Assembly (NCBI GenBank): GCA_017616785.1
Contig: JAFZXK010000009.1
Span: 1,612 to 65,611, forward strand
Length of the DNA stretch: 64,000 nucleotides
Direction of reading: 5' to 3'
Origin: Alphaproteobacteria bacterium
GTDB lineage: Bacteria > Pseudomonadota > Alphaproteobacteria > Rs-D84
The stretch's first letter is position 1. Each line of letters opens with the position of its first letter. Below, piece by piece: positions 3,986-39,057 of this stretch. A program made the position numbers and the translations under genes. A model generated the notes under the pieces. That model did not search any database, was not told where the DNA came from, and worked only from the letters and a program-made list of their open reading frames with translations.

Positions 3986-6037
3986 ATGAAAAAAGAGTTG
4001 TTTGATTTTCTGACGACGGACCTGCAATTTATTCGCGGGGTTGGGCCGGTTTTGGCGGCACGGTTCTTTGATTTGCTGGGGAATCGGCGGATTTTGGATT
4101 TTTTGTTACATATACCCGTCTATGTCAAGGAACGCGGTGTAATCGACAGTGTTGCAACCGCAATGCCCGGCGAAATTGTCACGACCATGGTGCGGGTGAA
4201 ATCCCATAAAATTGCGCGCAATTTCGGTCGGCGGCGCGCGCCTACGCGTATTACCTGTGTTGATAAAGTTGGGCAAACGGTTGTTATTCAATTCTTTAAT
4301 TCAAATTTTTTGGATTATTGGCTGAAAAAATTGCCGATTGGCGAATGGCGCATGATAAGTGGCAAATTGGAACAAACATCAACGCCGACAATCAATCACC
4401 CTGAATTTATCGAAGAAGTGCAAAACGCCGATAAAATTCCAAAGATTCAGGCAATTTATCGTTCCGGCGAAGGGATAACACAGAAAACCTTTACAAATAT
4501 CCGCGACCAGATTTTTGCGGCATTGCCAGACAAACTCATTGGTGAAGATGAACATTTGGTGGAATTTTTTGATGCGTTGCGCAATGCGCATTATGCACAA
4601 AGCAACGATGAATTGCAATCTATGTCTGATACGATTGTAAAATTGGCGTATTTCGAATTATTGGCGCACCAGGTTGCAATCGCCGCAAACCGCCGCACGC
4701 GTAAGGACGAACGGCATCGGCGAACGCCACGCGCAAAAAAATATGATTTGTTGCCGCGCTTCTATGAATCACTGCCGTTCAATTTGACGGGCGCGCAAAA
4801 ACGCGCGGTCGATGAAATTGCGCACGATATGTCCAGCGATTTTCCGATGATGCGCCTTGTCCAGGGGGATGTCGGTTGCGGGAAAACAATGGTTGCAATG
4901 GCAGCAACGGTTATGATGGCGGAATTTGGTGCACAAACGGCGTTGCTTGCGCCAACCGATACATTGGCCGCACAACATTATGCGAAACTTAAACCGCTGT
5001 GTGAAAAACTTGGTTTAGTGTGCGATATTTTAACCGGACGCGACAAGGGCGCGGCGCGGCGCGAAAAGTTGATTTCGCTGCGTTCGGGGCGGACACGGTT
5101 GGTTGTTGGAACGCACGCACTTTTTTCCGACGATGTGGAATATAAAGATTTGGGGCTTGTGATAATTGATGAACAACATCGCTTTGGTGTCGCGCAACGC
5201 GAAGCATTACGCGCAAAGGGAAACAATCCGGATGTGTTGGCGCTTTCCGCAACGCCGATACCGCGAACTTTGTCAATGACGATTTACGGCGATATGGATG
5301 TTTCGATTATAAATGAAAAGCCCGCGGGGCGCATGCCGATAAAGACAACCAAGTTACCAATTTCGCGCATCGATGCATTGATAGACCGATTACGGGTCCA
5401 AGTAGTTAGTGGCGCAAAAGTTTTCTGGATTTGTCCGTTGGTTGTGGAATCCGAAGAATCCGACGCAACCGCCGCACAACATCGATACGAAGAATTAAAA
5501 AAAGTTTTCACATGTGTTGGTTTGGTGCATGGGCAAATGTCCAAGGATGAACGCGACAAAGTTATGGCGGAATTTGCGCGGCCGGGTTCGGATATAAAAA
5601 TTCTTGTTGCGACGACGGTAATCGAAGTTGGAATCGATGTTCCCGATGCGACAATAATTGTAATTGAAAACGCGGAACGATTTGGACTTGCGGCGTTGCA
5701 CCAATTGCGTGGGCGTGTTGGGCGCGGGGCGGCACAATCGTTTTGTATTTTGCTTTATGGCGATAATGTTTCGCCCGATGGAATCAAACGTTTGGACGTG
5801 CTGACCGAAACGAATGATGGCTTTGCAATTGCGGAACAAGATTTGATGATGCGTGGCGTCGGCGAATTACTTGGCACGCGGCAATCGGGATGGATAAATT
5901 ATCACTTTGTTGATTATCGTGGCCACAGGGATTTGTTCAAATTGGCCGCGCGTGCGGCGTCTGATATGGTTAGGGTCGAACCGTGGGTGAATGATTTAAT
6001 GTTTATATTTGATAGAACATTAAAGATAGGTGTCTAA
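3986..6037 (+). CDS. recG: ATP-dependent DNA helicase RecG
   Basis: 683 aa with Walker A GDVGCGKT, DEQH(RFGV) and QLRGRVGRG helicase motifs, plus an N-terminal wedge region. Confidence 0.95.
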   Translation: MKKELFDFLTTDLQFIRGVGPVLAARFFDLLGNRRILDFLLHIPVYVKERGVIDSVATAMPGEIVTTMVRVKSHKIARNFGRRRAPTRITCVDKVGQTVVIQFFNSNFLDYWLKKLPIGEWRMISGKLEQTSTPTINHPEFIEEVQNADKIPKIQAIYRSGEGITQKTFTNIRDQIFAALPDKLIGEDEHLVEFFDALRNAHYAQSNDELQSMSDTIVKLAYFELLAHQVAIAANRRTRKDERHRRTPRAKKYDLLPRFYESLPFNLTGAQKRAVDEIAHDMSSDFPMMRLVQGDVGCGKTMVAMAATVMMAEFGAQTALLAPTDTLAAQHYAKLKPLCEKLGLVCDILTGRDKGAARREKLISLRSGRTRLVVGTHALFSDDVEYKDLGLVIIDEQHRFGVAQREALRAKGNNPDVLALSATPIPRTLSMTIYGDMDVSIINEKPAGRMPIKTTKLPISRIDALIDRLRVQVVSGAKVFWICPLVVESEESDATAAQHRYEELKKVFTCVGLVHGQMSKDERDKVMAEFARPGSDIKILVATTVIEVGIDVPDATIIVIENAERFGLAALHQLRGRVGRGAAQSFCILLYGDNVSPDGIKRLDVLTETNDGFAIAEQDLMMRGVGELLGTRQSGWINYHFVDYRGHRDLFKLAARAASDMVRVEPWVNDLMFIFDRTLKIGV

Positions 6038-20238: not shown

Positions 20239-20643
20239 TTAATCATCGTCACGTTCACGGTGTTCGCGCATTTTTTTATGCATTGACTTTTTCACCGAAT
20301 CAAATTCAATACTTGTAATACAGCCATTCATATCAGTATCGGCAAACATCAATTCATGTTGCATTTTTGGACATTTTATCGAATCCATAACCAGGCAACC
20401 GTTTTCGAATTTCGGCTGTATCCTTGGCATATGGCGATGACCGCGGCAACATGTGATTTTCGCAACCGCAAAGCCCAAGATGAACACAATCAACAACACA
20501 ATAAACTTTTTGAATTTTCCGCAGTGGCAACCGCACCCACATGAAGTGCCGCATTGACATTCGTGCATTTCCGGTGCCCGAACGGTCGCCATGTGTGGCG
20601 CCGCGCGTTTTGTAGTTTTTTTAACAGATGATTTTTTTTGCAT
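20239..20643 (-). CDS. Cys-rich single-pass membrane protein with an EF-hand-like loop
   Basis: CQCGTSCGCGCHCG cluster, a TM helix, and DTDMNGCITSIEF (DxDxNGxIxxxEF). Confidence 0.5.
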   Translation of the reverse strand: MQKKSSVKKTTKRAAPHMATVRAPEMHECQCGTSCGCGCHCGKFKKFIVLLIVFILGFAVAKITCCRGHRHMPRIQPKFENGCLVMDSIKCPKMQHELMFADTDMNGCITSIEFDSVKKSMHKKMREHRERDDD

Positions 20644-20751: not shown

Positions 20752-21780
20752 TTATATCGCTGGCCCGGCGGTAAAGTCATCACCACTGGTCGCGGCGTTC
20801 GTAAATAACGTGCCAGACACCGTATCATACATACCAAGGACATTATCAGAAATTCGTTTGCAAGGGATTAAATCTTGTATTATTACACCATCTTTTTCTA
20901 CAGTATGATGGTAAATTTTACCACTTGCTTCGTTTCCTGCTGTGCCACTATTATTACGCGCAAATAAGTAAATCGAGAGGGTATTCGCTGTAAATGTTTC
21001 AGGAGATGGTATCGTCATATTTCTCACTACTGTTCCGTCTATTGTCGCCTTCCAATTATTAGAGTTGTTAGTAGTATAAACTTTGCTAACAAATGTATGT
21101 TTATTTGTATCTTGCGGGACATCAGAAACAACTGTGGCATTAACACTAAACAAATATTGCGATGCATACGACGCTAATGTCCAACGTGGTAATGTACCAG
21201 AACCCATATAACCACATATACATAAAGGTGTTGAAGTTGAATTAACGCTATCAAAACTCGCTACTGTGGTTATTGTATAATCAAATGTTTTAGGTACAAT
21301 CCCCGTATCAATATACTGTGTCCCCGTGGATTGTATGTATTCCAACCGTGTATATCCATCGGGTAATTCACGGGCATACGCCGTTTGGTCGACGATGGTC
21401 CAAAGGTCACATATGCCCGGGTTTGCACATTCCAATTTTGTTGTGTCCGTCGTTGGTAAATTTGTAAATGTGGCGTTTAAGGCCGACGCAGTGATAAGTT
21501 TATCGCCATCCATGGCTGCATTATAACTACTCGCATCACTATACAACCCGCGTTCACCAATTTCGCCATTACCATTCGCGGTATAGGTCATTACTGTTTC
21601 ACCCGCACCACCGTTTGTTTGACCCGCCGCAGGTATCTTTAATTGTTTTGTCGCAACCTGTGTATCAACATATGCCTTGGATGATACGGTTTGAAGGTCC
21701 TCTGGCGTTGGTTCCGCAAACACACCAATAATCGTCATGAACGTACACAATACTGATGTCAATAATACCTTTTTTAGCAT
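20752..21780 (-). CDS. secreted modular protein A2 (shared N-module + variable C-terminal domain)
   Basis: Signal peptide. The N-module ...VSSKAYVDT..KIPAAGQTNGG..GERGLY..DKLITASAL..LPTTDTTKLECAN is shared with three other ORFs. C-terminal blocks YTRLEYIQSTGTQYIDTG...GMYDTVSGTLF...FTAGPAI. Confidence 0.7.
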   Translation of the reverse strand: MLKKVLLTSVLCTFMTIIGVFAEPTPEDLQTVSSKAYVDTQVATKQLKIPAAGQTNGGAGETVMTYTANGNGEIGERGLYSDASSYNAAMDGDKLITASALNATFTNLPTTDTTKLECANPGICDLWTIVDQTAYARELPDGYTRLEYIQSTGTQYIDTGIVPKTFDYTITTVASFDSVNSTSTPLCICGYMGSGTLPRWTLASYASQYLFSVNATVVSDVPQDTNKHTFVSKVYTTNNSNNWKATIDGTVVRNMTIPSPETFTANTLSIYLFARNNSGTAGNEASGKIYHHTVEKDGVIIQDLIPCKRISDNVLGMYDTVSGTLFTNAATSGDDFTAGPAI

Positions 21781-21806
21781 ATTATCTTTCCCCCCGTTTA
21801 CGGTTT

Positions 21807-22244
21807 TTAATCGCCACTGTTATTATTATCTTCATCGCCGTATACCTGTTGATCTTGGACCGTCCATAAACTGCATGTTGGGCTGTTCGCACAGGTCAAT
21901 TTTGATGTGGTCAATGTTGGCAAACTTGATACACTTCCCTTTAATGCGGATGCCGTTACCAATTTATTCGCATCTGTGTTTGCTGTATAAGTGCTTGGGT
22001 TATCGTATATTCCGCGTTCACCAATTGTACCGTTTCCGGTTGTTGTATATGTGACGACCGAAACGCCGGGCGTTCCGCTATTTGTGTTTGCCGCGGGTAT
22101 TTTGGCCTGTCTGGTTTCAACAGATGTATCAACATATGCCTTGGATGACACGGTTTTACGGTCCGTTGCCGTCGTTTCCGCGTATGCAATTCCGCCCATA
22201 AACACGCATAATGCAAATGCACATAATTTCCCAGAAATTCGCAT
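21807..22244 (-). CDS. secreted short protein A1 (N-module only, Asn/Asp-rich tail)
   Basis: Signal peptide and the same N-module as A2/B1/B2. GGGGAG RBS. It is the first gene downstream of switch A. Confidence 0.7.
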   Translation of the reverse strand: MRISGKLCAFALCVFMGGIAYAETTATDRKTVSSKAYVDTSVETRQAKIPAANTNSGTPGVSVVTYTTTGNGTIGERGIYDNPSTYTANTDANKLVTASALKGSVSSLPTLTTSKLTCANSPTCSLWTVQDQQVYGDEDNNNSGD

Positions 22245-22303
22245 GGTTCTCCCCTTTTTTCCTATGATTTACTGGCATACAAATCCGCTATTAAAAGTGT
22301 ATC

Positions 22304-22322
22304 AAAAACCAAGGTTTTTTTT
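22304..22322 (+). repeat. hix-like recombination site A-left (core AA at 22311-22312)
   Basis: GTATCAAAAACC-AA-GGTTTTTTTT. The gene-proximal half TATCAAAAACC resembles the Hin hix half-site. Confidence 0.75.
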
Positions 22323-22417
22323 ACACCACCACGGCGAAAAGTGCGAAATTTGTAATCTATTGTTTTTACTATGAAAAAAATTTTTGATTTTTTGAAAAAA
22401 GTGGTTGACTAAAAACC
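22313..22417 (+). promoter_or_regulatory. invertible cassette A; -35 TTGACT (22405-22410) faces away from operon A and toward the invertase gene
   Basis: The interior is the reverse complement of cassette B (1 mismatch over ~85 nt), while the outer flanks are collinear. Confidence 0.75.
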
Positions 22418-22429
22418 TTGGTTTTTTTT
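22411..22429 (+). repeat. hix-like recombination site A-right (core TT at 22418-22419)
   Basis: AAAAACC-TT-GGTTTTTTTT, inverted relative to A-left. Confidence 0.75.
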
Positions 22430-22538
22430 ATACCACTTAAAAAACGATGAAACCCTTATTATATCTTGCCTGTAACACAGGTGCCGATGTTTTTTCAGAC
22501 GCCTATTTTTAAGTCATTTTACACAAAAGGATAACACA

Positions 22539-23138
22539 ATGATTTATGGATATTGTCGCGTTTCAACCACGCATCAACACGAAGAAAATCAACATTTTGT
22601 CATAGAAAATTTTGCAAAGCAAAACAACATCAATATCGATTCTTGGATTGAAGAAAAAATTTCAAGTGGGCGAAAATTGCAAGACCGCAAGTTGGGCGCG
22701 CTGTTAAACGACCTTCAATCCGGCGACATATTGATTACCACAGAAATATCACGATTGGGGCGCAGTTTACTAGAGGTAATGGGAATTTTGCAAATGTGTC
22801 TTGAACGCGATTGCCAAATATGGACATTAAAAGAAAATTTTCGTTTGGGTACGGACATACAATCAAAAGTATTGGCATTTGCGTTTGGACTTTCTGCGGA
22901 ATTATCGCGTTCTTTGTTGCGCGACCGTGTGCGCGAAAGTTTGGCGCGCCTAAAAGCGGGCGGTAAAAAATTAGGACGTCCAATCGGCGCACAATCAAAG
23001 TTTTTGAAACTTAGTAAAAACAATGAACGAATAAATCTGCTAATAAGCCAGGGGATAAGTAAAAGTAAAATCGCGCGAATTATGCGCGTAAACAAAGTAA
23101 CACTTTACAATTATTTGCGAAACGCCAGTCAAATGTAA
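22539..23138 (+). CDS. small serine recombinase, Hin/Gin/Cin-type DNA invertase
   Basis: 199 aa with MIYGYCRVSTTHQ (catalytic Ser), ISRLGRS, and a C-terminal HTH (KSKIARIMRVNKVTLYNYL). Confidence 0.85.
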   Translation: MIYGYCRVSTTHQHEENQHFVIENFAKQNNINIDSWIEEKISSGRKLQDRKLGALLNDLQSGDILITTEISRLGRSLLEVMGILQMCLERDCQIWTLKENFRLGTDIQSKVLAFAFGLSAELSRSLLRDRVRESLARLKAGGKKLGRPIGAQSKFLKLSKNNERINLLISQGISKSKIARIMRVNKVTLYNYLRNASQM

Positions 23139-37307: not shown

Positions 37308-38333
37308 CTATTGTTGTTCTTGGGGAATGTAGACATTTATTGCAGGTCCAGCGGTAAATTCACCGGTACCGATGTTAAGTTTAAATGTGTCACTAACTGT
37401 ATCATACATACCAACACTGTTTCCGGACTTTGCTGGCACACCGTTAAAGACAAGCACGTTATCTAAATAAATTTGAAATTTATAAACCTTCATTTTTGCA
37501 GGAGAGTAGTCAGCAGTATATCCAGTAAATAACATTATGTTTTTGTCTCGTCCTATATCATCTTCCATATACGTGTAGGGTGCTTCATAAACACCTTCAT
37601 CAAAAAGCAAACTAATGTTTGCATCCGATGGTGTTAGACCAGCATCAAACGTCACCACATGTCGATTTGTGTCAAAAGGGATTCTTATCTGGCTACTTGA
37701 CGAAACTGTTCCGCCCATAGAAATCCTAAATTGATTTGAATATAACCATATGGTTCCAGTTCGTCTGCCGCCCATTCCACCCCAAAGTCCAGAGACGGTG
37801 TAATCTTTCATTTTAAAATCAGCAATATATCTTACATGTTCACTTGTTCTGTATTTTATACCCGTATTAATATATTGTGTACCCGTGGATTCAATATATT
37901 CCAACTGTGTGTATCCCGCGGGCAAAATGCTATACGCACTTTGGTCGACGATGGTCCAAAGGGTGCAATCTTGATTCGCACATTCCAATTTTGTTGTGTC
38001 CGTCGTTGGTAAATTTGTAAATGTGGCGTTTAAGGCCGATGCAGTTATAAGTTTATCACCATCTGTGTTGGGGTTATAACTACTCGCATCACTATATAAC
38101 CCGCGTTCACCAATTTCACCATTACCATTCACGGTATACGTCATTACTGTTTCACCCGAACCACCGTTTGTTTGACCCGCCGCGGGTATCTTTACCTGTT
38201 TTGTTGCAACCGCTGTGTCAACATATGCCTTGGATGATGCGGTTTTAAGGTCCTCTGCCGTTGGTTCCGCAACCGCACCAAAAATCGTCATTACCGTGCC
38301 CAATATCGATGTTAGCAATACCCTTTTAAACAT
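37308..38333 (-). CDS. secreted modular protein B2 (paralog of A2)
   Basis: Same signal peptide and N-module as A2. YTQLEYIESTGTQYINTG. Divergent C-terminal domain ending GMYDTVSDTF...FTAGPAI. Confidence 0.7.
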   Translation of the reverse strand: MFKRVLLTSILGTVMTIFGAVAEPTAEDLKTASSKAYVDTAVATKQVKIPAAGQTNGGSGETVMTYTVNGNGEIGERGLYSDASSYNPNTDGDKLITASALNATFTNLPTTDTTKLECANQDCTLWTIVDQSAYSILPAGYTQLEYIESTGTQYINTGIKYRTSEHVRYIADFKMKDYTVSGLWGGMGGRRTGTIWLYSNQFRISMGGTVSSSSQIRIPFDTNRHVVTFDAGLTPSDANISLLFDEGVYEAPYTYMEDDIGRDKNIMLFTGYTADYSPAKMKVYKFQIYLDNVLVFNGVPAKSGNSVGMYDTVSDTFKLNIGTGEFTAGPAINVYIPQEQQ

Positions 38334-38368
38334 GCTACCTTTCCCCCCGTTTCCGTTACTTTGAAATC

Positions 38369-38830
38369 TTAATCATTGTTATTATTGTTACTATTATTGT
38401 TGTTACTGTTGTTATTCTCGTCACCGTATACCTGTTGATCTTGGACCGTCCATAAACTGCATGTTGGGCTGTTCGCACAGGTCAATTTTGATGTGGTCAA
38501 TGTTGGCAAACTTGATATACTTCCCTTTAATGCGGATGCCGTTACCAATTTATTCGCATCTGTGTTTGCGGTATAATCGCTTGGGTTATCGTATATTCCG
38601 CGTTCACCGATTGTCCCGTTTCCGGTTGTTGTATATGTGACGACCGCCGTCCCAAGTGTGCCGGAATTAGTGCCAGCCGCGGGTATTTTGGCCTGCCTGG
38701 TTTCAACCGATGTATCCACATACGCTTTGGACGATACGGTTTTGCGGTCTGTTGCCGTCGTTTCCGCACATGCGATTCCACACACAAACACGCATGTTAT
38801 AAATACAAATAAATTCCTAACGATTCGCAT
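38369..38830 (-). CDS. secreted short protein B1 (paralog of A1, poly-Asn tail)
   Basis: The ATG at 38830 is preceded by GGAGGA. The gene is near-identical to A1 over long DNA runs. Confidence 0.7.
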   Translation of the reverse strand: MRIVRNLFVFITCVFVCGIACAETTATDRKTVSSKAYVDTSVETRQAKIPAAGTNSGTLGTAVVTYTTTGNGTIGERGIYDNPSDYTANTDANKLVTASALKGSISSLPTLTTSKLTCANSPTCSLWTVQDQQVYGDENNNSNNNNSNNNNND

Positions 38831-38891
38831 GGTTTCCTCCCCTTTCTTCCTTTGATTTATCTGCATACAAATCCGTTGTTAAAAGTGTATC

Positions 38892-38905
38892 AAAAACCAA
38901 GGTTT
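38892..38905 (+). repeat. hix-like recombination site B-left (core AA at 38899-38900)
   Basis: GTATCAAAAACC-AA-GGTTT. Confidence 0.75.
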
Positions 38906-39005
38906 AAAATCAACCACTTTTTTCAAAAAATCAAAAAATTTTTTCATAGTAAAAACAATAGATTACAAATTTCGCACTTTTCGCCGTGGTGGTGTAAAAA
39001 AAACC
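38901..39005 (-). promoter_or_regulatory. invertible cassette B; -35 TTGATT (38908-38913, minus strand) faces operon B and pairs with fixed TGnTACACT (38884-38892)
   Basis: Minus strand reads TTGATT-18 nt-TACACT with TG at -15/-14. The RBS and B1 start lie ~55 nt downstream. Confidence 0.65.
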
Positions 39006-39016
39006 TTGGTTTTTTT
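38996..39016 (+). repeat. hix-like recombination site B-right (core TT at 39006-39007)
   Basis: AAAAAAAACC-TT-GGTTTTTTT. Confidence 0.75.
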
Positions 39017-39032
39017 ATACCACCCCTAAACA

Positions 39033-39057
39033 CAAAAAAACCGCAGATTTATGCGGT
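39033..39057 (-). terminator. rho-independent terminator after the HAD gene, insulating switch B
   Basis: Minus strand reads CCGCA-TAAATC-TGCGG followed by TTTTTTT. Confidence 0.65.

Follow-up and report, generated by a model that had tools for sequence, protein, structure and literature searches.

The window (the whole stretch of DNA that was analysed, 64,000 nucleotides) contains two operons, at locus A and locus B, each lying beside a 105-bp invertible cassette, and the question raised by these loci is how inversion of so short a segment could switch an operon on and off. The original prediction was that the -35 box is carried on the cassette, that the -10 box is fixed next to the operon and that the crossover falls in the spacer between them. 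Analysis of the window, together with about 35 related loci in alphaproteobacterial MAGs from gut and rumen ("Ca. Enterousia" and relatives), suggests that a split promoter of this kind, with the cassette providing the -35 box and the flank the -10 box, is probably present and serves as a phase-variation switch.

Organization of the proposed split promoter at locus B

Direct reading of the sequence found all the predicted coordinates and strings at loci A and B to be correct. The features of locus B are as follows.

38913-38908, minus strand: -35 hexamer TTGATT, carried by the cassette at 7 nt from the crossover core, read directly
38914-38945, minus strand: A/T tracts G-A6-T6-GA-T6-G-A6-GTGG, on the cassette, directly upstream of the -35 hexamer
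38907-38890, minus strand: 18-nt spacer between the hexamers, including the crossover core at 38899-38900
38887-38912, unstranded: operon-proximal recombination site, core 38899-38900, hybrid in the ON state and making up the promoter spacer
38892-38884, minus strand: fixed TG-A-TACACT, with the -10 hexamer at 38889-38884 and TG at 38892-38891, outside the cassette
38901-39005, unstranded: invertible cassette, 105 bp between cores, in the ON orientation
38989-39023, unstranded: distal recombination site, core TT at 39006-39007
38828-38883, minus strand: leader, with the RBS GGAGGA at 38840-38835 and the B1 ATG at 38830-38828
39040-39057, minus strand: intrinsic terminator of the upstream HAD-hydrolase gene, insulating locus B from read-through

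The minus strand of locus B reads ...GAAAAAAGTGG-TTGATT-TTAAACC-TT-GGTTTTTGA-TACACT. The A/T tracts upstream of the -35 hexamer are presumably UP-element-like. In the proposed mechanism the cassette would bring the upstream half of a promoter alone, namely the UP-like tract and a TTGAYT hexamer 7 nt from one core, and the fixed -10 hexamer TACACT would lie 9 nt beyond the other side of this core, beside the cargo operon. Since the core lies between the -35 and -10 hexamers, the 26-bp recombination site would double as the promoter spacer. In the ON state, as at locus B, the UP-like tract, TTGATT, 18 nt and TGnTACACT would be joined about 47 nt ahead of the start codon of B1, and we infer that RNA polymerase would initiate at this split promoter. 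No recombinase gene is present beside locus B, where the outer neighbour is the HAD-hydrolase gene.

Organization of locus A

The features of locus A up to the recombinase gene are as follows.

22296-22304, minus strand: fixed TG-A-TACACT (AGTGTATCA), identical to the fixed segment of locus B
22297-22329, unstranded: operon-proximal recombination site, core AA at 22311-22312
22313-22417, unstranded: invertible cassette, 105 bp, in the OFF orientation
22373-22410, plus strand: cassette A/T tracts and -35 hexamer TTGACT (22405-22410), pointing toward the recombinase gene
22401-22433, unstranded: distal recombination site, core TT at 22418-22419
22429-22434, plus strand: TATACC, the predicted candidate -10 toward the recombinase, 18 nt after TTGACT

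TGTAAA, the reverse complement of plus-strand positions 22320-22325, occupies the -35 position at locus A, and the state of the locus is therefore read as OFF. In this orientation the GC-rich end of the cassette would set TGTAAA at the -35 position, leaving the operon OFF or at most leaky by way of the retained TGnTACACT. The cassette also contains a mini-ORF of 13 codons (ATG at 22372), which was dismissed as it has no RBS and is not conserved.

Cassette inversion and crossover sites

Cassette A is identical to the reverse complement of cassette B at 101 of 105 positions, against 61 of 105 for cassette B as it stands, and the operon-side flanks of the two loci share 90% identity over 70 nt. 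The core motif AAAACCAAGGTTT occurs four times in the 64-kb window against 0.36 expected (four or more copies in 0 of 100 shuffles), and these four copies are exactly the four cassette ends. The window crossover sites are hix-like (AAACC-AA/TT-GGTTT); a further hix-like match near window position 5010 is ordinary coding sequence and was discarded.

Inversion is also seen among relatives. The loci L011 and L013, from closely related MAGs, have flanks identical at 999/1000 and 985/1000 positions, and their cassettes match (107/109) as reverse complement only. In the CAMVAR MAG one locus (L004) is ON and four (L001, L002, L003 and L005) are OFF. Comparison of A with B, of L011 with L013 and of the CAMVAR loci establishes that cassette inversion is real. 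The predicted states, ON at locus B and OFF at locus A, are supported as read from sequence, and L011 and L013 show inversion at an orthologous locus.

Among approximately 30 assembled loci, four were in the ON orientation and OFF predominated. Because assemblies are OFF at most loci, the ON-state junctions analysed below are mostly in-silico constructs. At core-family loci the OFF-state operon-proximal site is a "short" palindrome with ACC at positions 10-12 of each half, the OFF-state distal site is a "long" palindrome with ACCAC at positions 13-17, and in the ON state each of the two is a hybrid of short and long halves. This asymmetry may lie behind the strong OFF bias in assemblies.

The crossover dinucleotide varies among the relatives, some species having AA/TT as in the window. 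A symmetric TA crossover within AAACCTAGGTTT was found at L006, L016, L018, L019, L021, L023, L028 and L029, and the crossover AACGTT, apparently with a CG dinucleotide, at L035, L036 and L041-L044. With a symmetric dinucleotide, a serine invertase loses the sequence cue to site polarity. Core-to-core lengths cluster at 106-111, 130-133 (three loci) and 136-141 bp. A mutated core or half-site was observed in L114 (right core, CCTTGT for CCTTGG), L106 (distal site) and L008 (right site, GGAAT), and such cassettes may be switches locked in one state.

Some assemblies break at the cassette or run chimerically through it (L105, L087 and L001-L005), and the end of the L105 contig shows the fixed-side-like sequence GGTTTTTGAT beyond the distal core. 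Among other assemblies of locus A, L086 is likewise OFF and the L087 contig starts or ends at the core. The breaks in L087 and L105 fit mixed orientations or multi-copy repeats and prove nothing. For B1 and B2, no other assembly is on record.

Distribution among relatives

The protein search with the recombinase yielded 80 loci, nearly all from uncultured gut or rumen Alphaproteobacteria ("Candidatus Enterousia" and relatives), with remoter matches of about 50% identity in Bacteroidales and Treponema. The architecture of the window loci is shared by 25 core-family loci and by L008 and L026. A single metagenome scan added four rumen contigs with this architecture (L105, L106, L114 and L116), the remaining matches of the scan being mostly unrelated marine coding sequence. 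One rumen MAG contains the fixed junction five times, with 4/5 copies at contig ends. No comparable cassette was seen at the Treponema and Parabacteroides recombinase loci (L067 and L076), and the search for known RNA families gave chance matches only, far below gathering scores.

Promoter scores in the two orientations

Each cassette was placed in both orientations in silico and all sigma-70-like sites toward the cargo were scored with a weight matrix of approximate hexamer frequencies, so that the scores are approximate as well. The promoter at locus B scored 10.2 and that of locus A, flipped in silico, 12.4, both in the 99.99th percentile or higher among all positions on the two window strands. 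In the ON configuration the split promoter was the top site toward the cargo in 25/25 core-family loci, with scores of 8.8-15.0 (at least the 99.98th window percentile). All 25 sites have the same make-up: the cassette supplies TTGAC(T/A) or TTGATT, the core falls within a spacer of 16-18 nt, and the -10 hexamer lies outside the cassette. The split promoter is also the best fit at L008 and L026. OFF configurations gave lower scores at inconsistent positions, the exceptions being L006 and L029.

In the remoter CG-core relatives the split-promoter model discriminates poorly. With the crossover position assumed, ON and OFF scores were 13.6 vs 10.0 for L035 and 9.0 vs 9.9 for L036, and L041-44, under the same assumption, score 6.6.

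The window hexamers match the consensus at 4/6 positions each, and a consensus promoter scan with a threshold of 9/12 misses the locus B site since it reaches 8/12. The OFF junction of locus A still scores 7.2 (GTAAAA-17-TACACT with TG), so that the ON/OFF contrast may be modest and the OFF state possibly leaky.

Conservation of the predicted promoter elements

The GTTGA of the -35 box shows no variation among the species-level representatives (17/17), and among the relatives the -35 hexamer is always 7 nt from the core and comes after an A6 tract. Identity is 0.87 for the -35 end of the cassette and 0.81 for the fixed 15 nt. Cassette interiors (0.59, vs 0.55 for shuffled sequences) and leaders (0.61 vs 0.58) have diverged to background. 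The cassette TTGAC agrees with the alphaproteobacterial sigma-70 consensus CTTGAC-N17-CTATAT (PMC2873474).

Both hexamers overlap recombinase half-sites, and part of their conservation is therefore owed to recombination. Comparison of equivalent half-sites separates the two constraints. No variation is seen in the TCA that makes up positions 10-12 of the -35 end (the TGA of TTGAC), and in the equivalent outer-right half-site positions 11-12 are free and carry almost no information. The fixed-left half-site has T9, A10, A13 and T14 (TAnnAT), and its dyad partner reads AACCGC. The A6 tract abutting nTGG-TTGAC occurs at one of the four half-sites, namely the -35 cassette end. On the fixed side, a TAnnnT hexamer is found at the same place in all relatives, giving an ON spacer of 16-18 nt; the variants across species (TACACT, TACCAT, TAGAAT, TATACT, TATCAT, TAACAT and TACCGT) all keep T1, A2 and T6. 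These patterns support the view that promoter-critical bases are conserved beyond the needs of equivalent recombinase half-sites. At the loci without an adjacent recombinase (B, L001-L005 and L106), the sole partner available to the TTGAC box is the fixed -10 hexamer.

The 25/25 top scores, the invariant GTTGA and the half-site contrast support the predicted layout of a -35 box on the cassette, a fixed -10 box and a crossover in the spacer. The TG of the "extended -10" fared differently: it is present in the window, the CAMVAR MAG, L009, L014 and L035, and absent from most relatives. As it is not conserved and coincides with a hix-like half-site, it is not a defining feature of the switch. The A/T tracts might bend DNA for synapsis of sites 107 bp apart, instead of or besides a role as an UP element.

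The recombinase and its regulatory region

The features between the locus A cassette and the end of the recombinase gene are as follows.

22436-22515, plus strand: recombinase regulatory region, with decayed fixed -35 CTTAAA at 22436-22441, -10-like TATATC at 22460-22465, and hairpin(s) and T-runs ahead of the RBS
22487-22458, minus strand: opposite-strand promoter-like site TCGGCA-18-TATAAT, 10/12, score 9.6, reading into cassette A
22463-22458, minus strand: TATAAT opposite the recombinase -10, shared as a -10 with the recombinase promoter
22539-23138, plus strand: serine DNA invertase, Mpi-family relative, 199 aa, Pfam Resolvase and HTH_7

The protein matches Pfam Resolvase (2e-30) in its N-terminal catalytic part and HTH_7 (1e-4) in its C-terminal HTH. 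Against NCBIfam NF009949 "master DNA invertase Mpi family" it scored 258.2 bits (E = 4.9e-77, match 1-196) and narrowly missed the equivalog cut-off of 272 bits; judged by sequence, it is a close Mpi-family relative and no certified equivalog. Its nearest solved structure, by PDB sequence match, is Gin (45.6 bits, E = 8e-11). This Mpi-family serine invertase (22539-23138) would flip the 105-bp cassette at no fewer than two genomic loci. The sites recur at locus B, at a distance of about 16.5 kb, where a recombinase gene is lacking, and one MAG has five cassettes; the recombinase adjacent to locus A is presumably the responsible enzyme and would act in trans on locus B.

In the stretch from the cassette to the recombinase ATG, most relatives keep CTTGA(A/C)-N16-yTAnAT on the plus strand. 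At most loci a hairpin and T-run come next, ahead of the RBS, an order that looks like an attenuator holding the recombinase low. In 17/19 recombinase-adjacent loci the highest-scoring site toward the recombinase (8.0-13.8) has a fixed position outside the cassette and does not depend on orientation; in 15 of these 17 it is a conserved TTGA(A/C)A located +17 to +19 relative to the right core. The fixed -35 is CTTGAA or CTTGAC in relatives and has decayed to CTTAAA in the window only, so that TTGACT-18-TATACC is the best candidate remaining there, a weak one (7.5). TATACC (22429-22434) is itself weak, lacks the final T and is not conserved among relatives. The suggestion that orientation A feeds transcription into the recombinase gene can consequently be kept as a possibility for window locus A and not as a family feature, the promoter being fixed in 17/19 loci.

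An opposite-strand promoter-like site reading into the cassette was found at A, L009, L010, L012, L014 and L022, and none was seen at the other loci. Scores at L009, L010, L012 and L014 were 10.9-11.4, and these four loci show a perfect TATAAT as TGATATAAT. In the window and at these four loci the region between cassette and recombinase looks like a bidirectional promoter arrangement.

Cargo genes

The two cargo operons of the window are as follows.

37308-38830, minus strand: cargo operon B, with B1 at 38369-38830 (153 aa) and B2 at 37308-38333 (341 aa)
20752-22244, minus strand: cargo operon A, with A1 at 21807-22244 (145 aa) and A2 at 20752-21780 (342 aa)

A1 and A2 are paralogues of B1 and B2, and the products are signal-peptide proteins. 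All four share an N-terminal domain of about 135 aa, and A2 and B2 have an extra C-terminal part that is divergent and predicted, by a low-confidence model, to be beta-rich. A1 and B1 resemble free-standing versions of the domain with which A2 and B2 begin. Searches of Pfam, NCBIfam, PHROG and PDB sequences gave no convincing match for A1, A2, B1 or B2, and an AlphaFold2 model of A2 from the four-paralogue alignment was unusable (pLDDT 38.9). The tail of B1 is Asn-rich (NNNSNNNNSNNNNND), and A1 ends EDNNNSGD. Downstream of A2, a third gene (20239-20643, minus strand) codes for a Cys/His-rich protein of 134 aa (CQCGTSCGCGCHCGKF) that has a hydrophobic segment and no family match; it may belong to operon A.

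In most species the cargo is a single trimeric autotransporter adhesin (YadA_anchor) of 470-690 aa. The adhesin cargo (L007-L029, L008 and L026) has an unusual N-terminal extension, MxRQSKTTIKELSAQYR. Other cargo, assigned by eye, includes a prepilin-like protein (L024), an ankyrin-repeat secreted protein (L035) and, elsewhere, a small secreted protein. All of this cargo consists of surface or secreted proteins, as phase variation would predict.

Alternative explanations

One alternative is that TTGAC, TAnnnT and the A-tracts serve recombination alone, that they resemble a promoter by coincidence and that the cargo is controlled otherwise. In its favour, both hexamers lie within or beside half-sites. 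In addition, TACCAT is the reverse complement of ATGGTA, like the ACC(A/G) of other half-sites, TGATA is part of the Hin hix half-site consensus, and the tight length clusters (106-111, 130-133 and 136-141 bp) suggest a helical-phasing constraint. We consider this explanation improbable: the outer-right half-site tolerates change at the TG of TTGAC, the final T and the T at position 9 are missing in the dyad partner, and the A6 tract is present at 1/4 half-sites. Furthermore, the -10 hexamer varies by species and yet keeps T1, A2, T6 and a legal spacer, and no alternative conserved promoter was found upstream of the cargo in the loci scanned. Equally improbable is an arrangement like that of cwpV, in which a fixed outside promoter drives the operon and the cassette is an orientation-dependent terminator. 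The outside promoter it calls for is missing at most loci, including all those without an adjacent recombinase, and the HAD gene upstream at locus B is provided with a terminator; the invariant TTGAC and the fixed TAnnnT would also be left unexplained. It is favoured by the minus-strand promoter-like site into the cassette at A (9.6) and at L009, L010, L012 and L014 (10.9-11.4), and by the OFF-state distal site, whose palindrome gives a hairpin with U6, complementary to the cassette A6, directly behind it. The minus-strand RNA of this hairpin gave -12.4 kcal/mol (z -4.0) in the window (22450-22380) and -13.3 kcal/mol (z -2.9) in L010 (3855-3925), and in the ON orientation no U-run follows the distal-site hairpin. 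Against its role as the terminator, the hairpin is AU-rich with internal loops and was not called by the terminator scan. We can speculate that it gives the OFF operon secondary insulation from read-through.

The cassette -35 box could also serve mainly the recombinase, through pairing in the common orientation with the outer-right half-site, with any effect on the cargo secondary. We regard this as very improbable. TTGAC does face the recombinase in 22/23 recombinase-adjacent loci, and in the window, where the fixed -35 has decayed, TTGACT-18-TATACC is the best site left (7.5). However, the outer-right half-site holds no conserved -10 hexamer at a suitable distance (TGAACC, TAGACC, GCGACC and others), the best site toward the recombinase is fixed and orientation-independent in 17/19 loci and fits the alphaproteobacterial consensus, and cassettes distant from any recombinase retain the TTGAC box.

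The split promoter, our preferred reading, can be extended to a family of half-promoter invertons of about 105 bp, widespread in gut Alphaproteobacteria and served in trans by an Mpi-like invertase. The spacer would be the recombination site, so that recombinase and RNA polymerase would be mutually exclusive, and the A6/T6 tract would have two roles, as UP element when the switch is ON and, when it is OFF, as the U-run of a terminator-like hairpin at the distal site. This joint reading is conceivable but, taken as a whole, doubtful; if true, one 105-bp element would give activation, silencing and insulation.

Comparison with known systems

A close parallel is Mpi ("multiple promoter invertase") of Bacteroides fragilis with its invertible capsule and surface-protein promoters. 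Like the window enzyme, which scores just under the equivalog cut-off, Mpi is a small serine recombinase described by NCBIfam NF009949. In that system one enzyme acts on several short dispersed promoter cassettes, some without an adjacent recombinase, as is proposed here, and both switches control surface molecules in a gut bacterium. The hosts differ, Bacteroides in one case and an alphaproteobacterium in the other, and the crossover here is hix-like (AAACC-AA/TT/TA-GGTTT). Bacteroides Mpi cassettes are roughly 170-220 bp, so that the 105-bp cassette is about half as long. The Bacteroides-type inverted repeat is ARACGTWCGT, from which the window sites differ; the AACGTT crossover of L035, L036 and L041-L044 resembles it. 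According to a review (PMC12632263), the whole promoter region of the Bacteroides switches is enclosed by the inverted repeats; in the window the crossover instead falls between the -35 and -10 hexamers. The same difference separates the window switch from the classical inverton, which carries a complete promoter between its repeats: here none is conserved inside the cassette and the best site spans the crossover. The shared trait is a short non-coding repeat-flanked segment present in both orientations.

The Hin/Gin/Cin/Pin enzymes have the same architecture (Resolvase and C-terminal HTH) and use a pseudo-palindromic site with a 2-bp core. The fixed half-site GGTTTTTGATAC appears nearly identical to a hixL half-site, and the AAACC-AA-GGTTT core resembles hixL. 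The 26-bp hix and gix sites have an asymmetric 2-bp core, whereas relatives here use symmetric TA or CG. Hin inverts a segment of about 1 kb with the hin gene and the complete fljB promoter, unlike the 105-bp cassette, and Gin, Cin and Pin swap tail-fibre coding ends, unlike the window switch. The Hin/Gin/Cin/Pin enzymes need a Fis-bound enhancer. The window recombinase is far from Gin (45.6 bits) compared with the Mpi family model (258 bits).

The switches of E. coli fimS, Photorhabdus mad and C. difficile are likewise short non-coding ON/OFF elements for surface structures with the recombinase adjacent, as here. The fimS type, however, uses tyrosine recombinases, and its segment of 150-320 bp includes either a complete promoter or a post-initiation element. 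In the hybrid or circle-junction promoters of insertion sequences a mobile -35 is brought to a separate -10, as here, but these arise from transposition or circle formation and are no dedicated reversible site-specific switch. Simple-sequence-repeat switches (Haemophilus hif, Neisseria) also alter the relation between -35 and -10 and do not move the whole promoter; they change spacer length by slipped strands, whereas recombination would replace the -35 here. Conceptually, the window switch can be viewed as promoter inversion combined with the hybrid-promoter principle of insertion sequences. No natural crossover between -35 and -10 was found in the literature searched, and its absence there is no proof.

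Significance

If the split promoter is confirmed, natural invertons need not carry a whole promoter, as an UP/-35 half moved across a spacer crossover would suffice. The half-promoter design would roughly halve the size of the switch and is attractive as a compact part for synthetic recombinase logic. Inverton finders and annotations that seek a complete promoter between repeats would misread or miss this class. Confirmation would also extend the Mpi-type control of many promoters by one invertase beyond Bacteroidales to reduced-genome uncultured Alphaproteobacteria of gut and rumen, and the trimeric autotransporter adhesins and other surface proteins so governed would point to host or phage pressure on these bacteria.
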